A stretch of DNA of 57,407 nucleotides, filler included, from Basidiobolus ranarum (lineage: Eukaryota), in NCBI GenBank assembly GCA_040143965.1. It is 3 parts of 3 records of this genome, joined end to end, with 100 filler letters (N's around TTAATTAATTAA, not from the genome) between each part and the next. Parts side by side here need not be neighbours in the genome. Positions count along the whole stretch, not along the records: positions 19,203 to 38,271 come from JASJQH010000258.1; 2 more parts are not named here. One strand, given 5' to 3'. Position 1 is the stretch's first letter. Every line of letters begins with the position of its first letter. Below the pieces are notes generated by a model that saw only the letters and a list, made by a program, of their open reading frames with translations, ran no database searches and was not told the DNA's origin. Positions 25,738-28,485 of the stretch are shown here, piece after piece. A program made the position numbers and the translations under genes.

Positions 25738-28485
25738 TTAGTAGTCAGCATATCGTACTTCTCCATTATCCATCACCCACTCACAATATTTCCTCAAGAA
25801 TTCATCTTTCATACCCACAGTCTCACTATTCCCGATAACACAAAGATGTCGTTTTGGTCTAGTGATGGCGACATTGAGACGACGTGAATCCGAAAGGAAT
25901 CCAACCTCTCCAGAGTCGTTGGATCGAACCATAGAGAAAATCACCGCTTCTTTCTCACGTCCTTGGAAGCCATCCACTATACACAATATGAATAGGTCAG
26001 TATTGAAATGAAAACGAAACCACATTCCAACAACATACCCGAGCCAATCTCCAAGTTCGGATACACTTCTTTCAATGCCAAGGTTAGCATCTTCACTTGT
26101 GCATTATATGGAGTGATTACCGCAATATCCTCTTCACTGACCCCCGCATCCACTAAGTTCTTGACATGCTCGATGACTATAGTGACTTCCCCTTCGTTAT
26201 ACTTACTATCTCCGTCTTTTTCACCGTCACCAGCTTCAGCCAGTTCATTCATACTAGCATGTGCGGTATCGATAAATACCAATGGAGAGATAGTATCATC
26301 TGTCTCTTCGACACCTGTGAGTTGACAGAGCAATCTTTCACGAACCGATTCATGGGCTATGAGCTTGTCCTCGTATAGCTCCATCGATGGATATTTCATG
26401 ATTAGCTCGTGCATTCGATATTGGGTAGTTAACATGGATTTGATTTTGTCTCCGTATATAGCAAGCATACGATCGAACAAAGTAACCTCCAAGCTCTTCC
26501 CAGAAGATGGATCCGAATTTTCCGGTGTGGTGGGGGAGCTATTGCGATTGGACTTGAGTGACTTGATGGTGGGTGGAAGTTGCAAGTGGTCACCTGCCTA
26601 TTCCCAAAGAAAGTCGCATTTAGATAAAAGTCAATAATCGTACCATAGTAAAAATCATCTACCAAAATCACTTTCTTAGCCTTTAAGATAGCGATCCAAC
26701 ATTCCTAGTAGAAAGGGCAAATTGTTAATCCGAGAGGAATGAGGAATGGATGGTGAAAAGAGGTAGCGCTTTGCTTACAGCTAATGGAAGTGATAAGATA
26801 CTTGGGTTAAAAGGTGAGAGTTAGCAGGATACAAAAATGGGGATATTACCTTCTAAGGCCTGGGTTGCTTCGTCAATGATGACTACATCGAACTTTCGGT
26901 TTTTCATGGTTCTACTTCCACACCTACCATCACGATTCCCATATCAGCGAGTGTAGAGCTAGTATAGATAAGATCAAGACATACCCATTTAAAGTGCTCA
27001 ATATAACTGGGGTTTCTTCAAATAATTCTTCAACGACTCTTCCCTCACGTACTCTAAACTCTCTCTTTAAATCTCTGAGCTCCTGATAATAGCCTTTTCT
27101 CTCAGTACGGTTTCTAGACTTTTGGATATTCGCCATAGTCTGATCCATCTCTTTACGTATATCATTCACAAGTTGACCTTGATCACAGGTCTGTGTAACA
27201 ACATCTAGAGCATGCTCCACGACAGCTGGCAAGATACGAGCAGGGTGGCCAACGCGTAGAATATTTAGTCGACATTTGGCCAATCTTTCAACCAAGTTAT
27301 CCACGGAAATATTGGATGGGCCACACACGAGGATTTTCTTCTCTTGCTTTGCCAGTTGTCGAATGATCTCAATCAATGTGTACGTTTTGCCAGTCTAACA
27401 GACGAGGGGAGGGAAGAATATTTAGACCATCAATTCAAAATGTAACTAGTAAACTAAGCCTCACATACTCCTGAATATTAGAAAAGTCAATAACCTATCG
27501 ATTTCCATGTATTCAAGAGAAATCTCTAACCTGGTGGTCCATGAATCAATCCTATCTCATTGGTATTCAATGCGAATTTAACCGCTTGCTTTTGAGAATC
27601 ATTCAAATTCTTATCGAAAAAGGAGATTTTGTTGAATTTGGTAGAGTGTGAGGGTGCTTGGAGATTGAATAAAACTCGAATCAAACTAGACTCTTTCTCC
27701 CGTTTAAGGTCCAACATGGCCCATTTCATTCTAATGGTAAAAGTGATTAAAGCATTCGAAAATATCCGATGAATTGAATTCTATTCACTTGAATGTACCT
27801 TTCATAGCTAATATTATTGGCTAACTTTGTCCTAGAAATTTCCCCATAAAATTAGTTCTCTTGTCTTTCAATGAGGAAGTTATTGCTGTAGTACATTTTA
27901 CATCTATCTTCCCATTCAACTGGTAGCTCTTCTTTCACTGCAACCGTTATCACAGTATCCGTAACCTTTAATACAACTCCATCTACGAACGGAACCGTTT
28001 CATTTGGCTTTAGTGGTGCCCCTACGGTGGCGCTTGGATTGGCACTGACAGTTTTGGAAACTGCAAGAGAAGTACCGGTGGGAGTATTCACTGACACTCG
28101 AAGATCTTCCGTGATTGCTATGATATCCCCCGAACGAATACGATGTGGTAAAAAGGTTGAAAGGTGAAGAGGTGGTTCAAAGTCAACAACACTTATCAAG
28201 AGAAGAAGTAAGGAAAAAGATTTGAAGTCAGTCGACCAGTTGAAAAGTATCCACCATATTCACAACCAGTTAAAGCGCCAAATGGTTACTCTAAGCTTTG
28301 AATAGAATATACCTTTTTCCACCTAAACCAGTTCTAAGTGCTGTGATACGTAAGCCACCTAATGCAAGACCACGTCGCTGTAACTGTTGTACCGATCTTT
28401 GTCCAAGTAGTTCGGAATTTTCGTCAATCTCTAGTTGCCTTTCCTTTTCAAGTAAGGCTAATTGATTTTCTACAAACGTTTCCAT
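25738..28485 (-). CDS. HCS1: SF1 Upf1-like helicase, IGHMBP2/SMUBP-2/Hcs1 type (676 aa); 11 exons: 28485-28313, 28191-27895, 27831-27799, 27730-27531, 27470-27469, 27394-26985, 26923-26850, 26780-26779, 26704-26663, 26597-26039, 25976-25738
   Basis: [82 protein letters not shown] and RRLNVAITR. Exon lengths sum to 2031 nt and all phases agree. No C-terminal R3H or AN1 domain. Confidence 0.92.

Follow-up and report, generated by a model that had tools for sequence, protein, structure and literature searches.

Gene structure at the helicase locus

The stretch of DNA analysed here, referred to as the window, comprises 57,407 nucleotides (nt) of the genome of Basidiobolus ranarum (assembly GCA_040143965.1) in three parts joined by filler. 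B. ranarum is placed in the phylum Basidiobolomycota by the NCBI taxonomy. On its minus strand, the window holds a gene for a predicted helicase of the IGHMBP2/HCS1 type, a UPF1-like helicase of superfamily 1B, in which two candidate internal exons of only 2 nt, GA and CT, are the subject of this report. With both of them, the gene (28485-25738) comprised 11 exons and 10 introns, coding for 676 codons and a stop. The joined model, 2,031 coding bases long, gave a protein of 676 amino acids (aa) without an internal stop.

The affiliation of the gene was based on several lines of comparison. The Pfam families AAA_11 and AAA_12 scored above their cut-offs on three exons. Single exons scored 118 and 163 bits with TIGR00376 (‘IGHMBP2 family helicase’), for which the cut-off of 348.9 bits applies to a whole protein. 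The best match in the PDB was human SMUBP-2 (4B3F/4B3G), with an E-value of 7e-33 for one exon as query. Full-length relatives were fungal proteins of 600-750 aa, some of them named DNA polymerase alpha-associated DNA helicase A. The best relatives originated from Mucorales, Umbelopsis and Mortierella and were 62-67% identical over the query exon. The model was collinear with the orthologues of Mucor, Absidia and Mortierella and aligned without gaps to eight orthologues through both the Walker A motif and motif II. Walker A (GxxxxGKT) and motif II (DEAxQ) were present, and Walker A was whole only with the GA exon. AAA_11 and AAA_12 are shared with IGHMBP2 (SMUBP-2) and with yeast HCS1. Compared with these helicases, the protein is ordinary and the oddity lies in the structure of the gene.

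In the order of transcription, the introns of the model measured 121, 63, 68, 60, 74, 61, 69, 74, 65 and 62 nt; if the 2-nt exons are left out, introns of 136 and 145 nt stand among them. Five of the six introns that do not border a 2-nt exon fell between 61 and 68 nt, compared with 60, 74, 69 and 74 nt for the four that do. A YTRAY motif was present in all ten introns, 16-40 nt from the acceptor. The donors of the ten introns (28312-25977, minus strand) were degenerate: GTATAT, GTACTA, GTACAT, GTTAGA, GTAATA, GTAGAT, GTAAGC and, three times, GTATGT. Four of the ten carried G at donor position +5.

A probable 2-nt exon in the Walker A motif

An earlier note on this DNA had described a phase mismatch in the Walker A motif, bridged by a 2-nt exon GA, and its description held base for base. 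The upstream exon ended ...GGA CCA CCA G at 27531 in phase 1 and was followed by GTTAGA. The downstream exon, preceded by TGTTAG, started ACT GGC AAA ACG at 27394 in phase 0. The gap of 136 nt between them (27530-27395) divided into 60 nt, GA (27470-27469) and 74 nt. Its middle read ...TTCTAATATTCAG/GA/GTATGT, with slashes marking splice sites, and at 27473-27463 (CAG/GA/GTATGT) a canonical acceptor and a canonical donor directly flanked the 2 nt. Positions 1-27 of the AAA_11 profile ended at the last upstream residue and position 28 was the first downstream residue, with no residue lost. Exactly one Gly codon therefore spans the junction.

All single introns with GT or GC donors and AG acceptors were enumerated at this site, and none of them kept the helicase frame, in agreement with the note, according to which a single intron would frameshift GPPGTGKT. 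The sole stop-free single intron in the test segment was rejected; it removed TGKTYTLIE and quit the helicase frame. With two introns of at least 35 nt each, eight solutions kept the frame. Only the GA exon restored GPPGTGKT, with G plus GA supplying the missing Gly as the note had proposed, and the remaining solutions inserted residues into the P-loop or deleted TGKTYTLIE. GPPGTGKT was exact in 109 of the 124 proteins retrieved; the other 15 were truncated or mis-modelled at this junction.

The chance occurrence of such an arrangement was estimated from 200,000 shuffles of the sequence inside the gap, with both introns required to be at least 40 nt long. Any AG-NN-GT appeared in 16% of the shuffles, and one with G as the first exon base, as the Gly codon requires, in 2.9%. 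With a GTA(A/T)G donor in addition, the value fell to 0.077% (7.7e-4), and once AG also had to follow a pyrimidine and a branch-like motif had to be present, to 0.029%. Read from the genome sequence, GA is thus very probably a 2-nt coding exon that completes the Gly of GPPGTGKT. The note had also named a branch site, an acceptor and a strong donor. In their lengths and signals the two introns resembled the other introns of the gene. The proposed branch site CTAAT has its A only 7 nt from the acceptor; judged by the other introns, where this distance was 16-36 nt, TTGAC, 16 nt from the acceptor, suits intron 4a better.

A second probable 2-nt exon after motif II

A second candidate 2-nt exon, absent from the earlier note, was found in the same gene while the full helicase model was built. 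Three junctions downstream of the first site, an exon ended ...GAA G at 26850 in phase 1 and the next complete codons, GAA TGT TGG, started at 26704 in phase 0. The gap of 145 nt contained ...CCATTAG/CT/GTAAGC, which leaves one intron of 69 nt and one of 74 nt, and canonical acceptor and donor directly flanked CT at 26783-26773 (TAG/CT/GTAAGC). G plus CT would encode the Ala that follows DEATQALE. This was the sole solution that gave QALEAECWI, the sequence of the family, and the probability of the arrangement in shuffled sequence was 1.2e-4. Two single introns with GC donors were rejected at this site, as part of motif II was deleted by them. The coordinates of both sites are listed in Table 1.

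Table 1. Features of the helicase gene of B. ranarum, with positions in the window and the evidence for each.
Feature	Position	Strand	Evidence
Predicted helicase gene	25738..28485	minus	Translated model, Pfam AAA_11/AAA_12, TIGR00376, PDB 4B3F/4B3G, collinear orthologues
Exon 4; ends in phase 1, with HGPP and base 1 (G) of the Gly codon	27531..27730	minus	Sequence, gene model
Intron 4a, 60 nt, GTTAGA...TCAG; TTGAC 16 nt and CTAAT 7 nt from acceptor	27471..27530	minus	Enumeration, model
Candidate 2-nt exon GA; G+GA = Gly of GPPG/TGKT (Walker A)	27469..27470	minus	Enumeration, shuffle 7.7e-4
Intron 4b, 74 nt, GTATGT...TTAG, phase 0	27395..27468	minus	In 44 other fungal loci, the only intron lies at this position
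Exon 6; starts TGKTYTLIE	26985..27394	minus	Sequence, Pfam, gene model
Exon 7; ends with DEATQALE and G, phase 1	26850..26923	minus	Gene model
Intron 6a, 69 nt, GTAATA...TTAG	26781..26849	minus	Gene model
Second candidate 2-nt exon CT; G+CT = Ala just after Walker B/motif II	26779..26780	minus	Restores family QALEAECWI; layout in L001 and L002
Intron 6b, 74 nt, GTAAGC...CTAG, phase 0	26705..26778	minus	Gene model
Exon 9	26663..26704	minus	Orthologue alignment, gene model
Public protein model, 174 aa	26821..27542	minus	Reconstructed exactly from the window sequence

The public gene model of B. ranarum

The locus is represented in the protein collection by hypothetical protein K7432_006086 of B. 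ranarum (P0121), which has 174 aa and matched the window at 100% identity. Its start codon is an ATG at 27542 that lies out of frame (MDHQ), and one intron of 136 nt joins ...CCACCAG to ACTGGC. The following intron is spliced correctly. The model then continues across intron 6a as far as a TAA whose last base is 26821. The two 2-nt-exon sites mark the exact limits of P0121, and the predictor therefore failed at each of them; that gene predictors would miss the GA exon had been anticipated in the earlier note. A protein search with the upstream exon for longer proteins gave no match. One fragment of 79 aa (P0181), probably from a related Basidiobolus, matched residues 63-141 of the B. ranarum model with 86% identity and reached neither junction.

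Occurrence in other fungi

Metagenome sequences were scanned for orthologous loci, and the best 80 of 194 were compared; they were fungal, with none from Mucoromycotina. The earlier note had suggested looking for the AG-NN-GT arrangement in orthologues of related fungi, and for the second site it was present in the DNA of two loci, L001 and L002. The exons of L001 were 94-100% and those of L002 about 98% identical to proteins of Mortierella sp. and Linnemannia. After DEATQALE, L001 read G/GTACGG, 116 nt, GCAG/CG/GTAAGA, 96 nt, ACAG/GAG TGC TGG, with the 2-nt exon at 1233-1234. The corresponding part of L002 was G/GTACTG, 131 nt, ACAG/CT/GTAAGT, with the 2-nt exon at 1565-1566 and the end of the contig next. 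The introns of both loci had other lengths than those of the window and no resemblance to them, and the 2-nt exon of L001 differed from that of the window only in the synonymous third codon base (GCG and GCT). The layout of the second site is conserved in DNA of Mortierellaceae. Among the remaining loci, 75 were intronless at this position and three were without the motif.

Protein models were frequently irregular there as well. Of 30 Mortierellomycotina-type models (P0024-P0085 range), nine were normal at the second site and 21 were not. The latter comprised 17 with insertions or deletions starting right after QALE, three without motif II and one with Glu for Ala, as would result if the acceptor AG were counted as coding. 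These models fit a systematic mis-prediction at a 2-nt exon.

Protein models also pointed to the first site in other early-diverging fungi. P0122 of Phycomyces blakesleeanus (187 aa) starts MVHQ/TGKT, from an out-of-frame ATG as in B. ranarum. Such a start requires a donor in phase 1 and an acceptor in phase 0, implying the same mismatch in Phycomyces. At its other end, P0122 reads into an intron after KKAIL (VRLAIK, stop), and this next junction may also be hard to model in Phycomyces. Models of Fennellomyces and Circinella read GPPE/TGKT, like the artefact of an absorbed AG at the second site, whose layout is known from DNA. Those of Apophysomyces and Umbelopsis vinacea read GPPGKT, as would follow if a phase-1 donor were spliced to a cryptic acceptor within the Thr-Gly codons. 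Altogether, 11 of 55 P-loop proteins of the GKTYTL type were abnormal exactly at the first site, including P0121 and one open reading frame call that started in an intron. A search of representatives (best 150 of 3,112, E <= 0.001) gave no new case at the first site; 148 proteins of this set were new, 129 of them had an intact P-loop, and most of the others started downstream. Scans of prokaryote genomes and of viruses gave three bacterial loci and none, respectively.

Evidence against the 2-nt exons and alternative explanations

Several observations weigh against the 2-nt exons or against their conservation. No full-length or junction-spanning B. ranarum protein was present in the protein collection searched. 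Of the gene's ten introns, only intron 4a has a GTT donor (GTTAGA). At the second site, a canonical single intron (26832-26705, donor GTATCC) keeps the frame, with GNIPIF in place of Ala. In the whole window, YAG-NN-GTAWG occurred ten times compared with 5.9 expected, and 6 of 100 shuffles reached ten, which is no clear enrichment. In other species, the layout of the first site was found in none of the best 80 of 194 metagenome loci. Of the 79 that could be classified, 33 were intronless, 44 had a single phase-0 intron and in two the upstream exon was not found. The evidence for conservation of the first site is indirect and suggestive, being read from mis-built protein models, and the models of three Umbelopsis species did not all follow one simple layout.

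The single intron of the 44 loci measured 49-426 nt and lay exactly between the complete Gly codon and the Thr codon. Intron 4b would thus occupy an old and widely shared position, found in many Ascomycota-like loci, and intron 4a would be an extra intron 2 nt upstream. Locus L080 was without the motif at the first site. In L056 and L069, both Ascomycota-like contigs, the phase-0 intron between Gly and Thr starts with GC (GCAAGT) instead of GT.

In the main rival, the donor of an ordinary phase-0 intron, about 134 nt long, would have lost 2 nt through an error in sequencing or assembly or through a recent deletion, and the internal AG/GA/GTATGT would be coincidental. Such an intron is just what the 44 loci have between Gly and Thr. 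Moreover, the window reads GGT TAG where they read GGN followed by GT, and GTTAGA is unusual as a donor in this gene. An internal AG, G with any base and GTA(A/T)G would still have to arise by a chance of 7.7e-4, and a second junction of the same gene shows an equal deficit of 2 nt with an equal rescue, in a layout kept in L001 and L002. The like mismatch in P0122 of Phycomyces is a further argument against it, and we regard this explanation as highly improbable. Still smaller is the probability that the public model is right, with a 136-nt intron and a short protein from the ATG at 27542, or that an exon-skipped, unproductive mRNA is the main product. The model has been deposited as P0121 and its splice sites are canonical, but its frame destroys HGPPG, it is missing 230 N-terminal residues as well as all that follows motif II, and it ends in an intron. 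The flanking parts are intact and collinear with orthologues of 668-730 aa, and a skipped mRNA would run into a stop after 11 codons.

A decaying pseudogene, with both deficits as frameshift lesions, would account for the two breaks of frame that the gene shows once the 2-nt exons are disregarded. It is less probable again, since the 2,031 coding bases hold no other lesion, all helicase motifs are intact, and each supposed lesion falls within a gap the size of an intron, where sites with complete splice signals restore the frame. Least probable of all is another small exon at the first site, either GCTTA of 5 nt (27459-27455), which gives GPPGLTGKT, or exons of 11 or 8 nt with GC donors. These solutions are canonical and keep the frame. 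They insert residues into a P-loop that reads exactly GPPGTGKT in 109 of 124 proteins, and their donors, GTTTAC and GCTTAG, are weaker than GTATGT.

Two special intron types were considered and rejected. The 5′ splice site of minor introns follows the consensus RTATCCTT. The donor at the first site is GTTAGAGA, the gap is free of TATCCT, and any single intron, a minor (U12-type) one included, leaves the deficit of 2 nt. Minor introns are frequent in Basidiobolus (PMC10639083). A stwintron was rejected because the introns lie side by side and are not nested, each with its own intact donor and acceptor.

The pattern scan of the window also concerned other loci. None of the matches beyond the two in the helicase gene could be supported. 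A candidate at 35752 was rejected, as it sits in a decayed copia-like element. This element (34755-35929, plus strand) is a remnant of a copia-type retrotransposon pol region, assigned to its family by eye, with reverse transcriptase and RNase H-like frames broken by frameshifts.

Predicted splicing and comparison with known systems

With GA and CT as exons, the pre-mRNA would contain two internal exons of 2 nt, and GA would bridge a phase-1 donor and a phase-0 acceptor. Both intron pairs would be recognised by intron definition, since the introns are all short and exon definition could not span an exon of 2 nt. The two introns of each pair would be removed one after the other; the upstream acceptor and the downstream donor are 2 nt apart and would not be occupied simultaneously, since the AG falls in the stretch that the donor needs. 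Either order of removal would regenerate a usable splice site. Skipping of either 2-nt exon shifts the frame and meets a stop after 11 codons, which makes inclusion the productive route. We infer that inclusion of both exons is constitutive.

At ratchet points of recursive splicing, acceptor and donor nearly overlap, the introns are very long, and stepwise removal regenerates a usable site. In the window, by contrast, the 2 nt would remain in the mRNA as coding sequence and the introns measure 60-74 nt. Recursive splicing at such zero-length exons is discussed in the study of the 1-nt exon of Arabidopsis APC11 (PMC4674806). The authors of that study propose that the two introns around the exon are removed one after the other (PMC4674806), and the stepwise removal suggested here follows the same reasoning. 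A second 1-nt exon has been described in CYP621A of Fusarium (PMC12940212). Both exons resemble the candidate exons of the window in that an ultra-short constitutive exon restores the phase in a conserved motif, was found via orthologues and had been missed by predictors (PMC12940212, PMC4674806). They differ in being 1 nt long and confirmed by transcripts or reporter assays, whereas the exons of the window have 2 nt and are read from genomic DNA. The CYP621A exon is conserved within one genus, Fusarium (PMC12940212). In stwintrons of filamentous fungi (PMC12403724), two U2-type introns are in direct contact and must be removed in order. A splice signal of the outer intron is split by the inner one, so that no sequence is retained between the two, whereas the introns of the window lie side by side and 2 coding nt would be kept.

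Exons of 2 nt are also on record from Coprinopsis cinerea, whose long-read annotation lists 57 of them in 50 genes, together with 13 exons of 1 nt (PMC12230235). These 2-nt exons are likewise fungal, internal and coding, and their omission breaks the frame and the gene model (PMC12230235). The Coprinopsis data are a catalogue for a member of the Basidiomycota built with long cDNA reads (PMC12230235), whereas the window belongs to an early-diverging fungus. Here, two such exons would lie in one gene by its ATP-binding motifs, in a layout shared with Mortierellaceae, as seen in DNA for the second site, and probably with Mucoromycotina, as gathered from protein models. The literature search gave nothing on such exons in this helicase, Basidiobolus, Mucoromycota, Mortierella or Rhizopus. 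Exons of 1-2 nt in fungi are already in print; the present case stands out by the position in the P-loop, the doubling in one gene and the layout shared among early-diverging fungi.

Meaning for the helicase and for early-diverging fungi

A broader reading is tentative and, as a whole, unlikely. It holds that both 2-nt exons are ancient and predate the split of Basidiobolus, Mucoromycotina and Mortierellomycotina, with one of them on an intron position shared with Ascomycota, and that they gate the amount of functional helicase, since the loss of either exon leads to a premature stop. Early-diverging fungi would then hold a conserved complement of such exons, by which a large share of their public models is broken unnoticed.

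For the helicase itself, 2-nt exons would account for the broken public models in many early-diverging fungi. Annotation pipelines and protein databases would benefit from a check for phase mismatches that seeks AG-N(1-3)-GT in introns. If the two exons are real, they would also provide a compact natural test of how the spliceosome handles an acceptor and a donor that are 2 nt apart. An essential-type helicase would then depend on a 2-nt exon for its ATP-binding loop and carry a second one beside motif II, suggesting that such exons persist across very deep fungal divergences.

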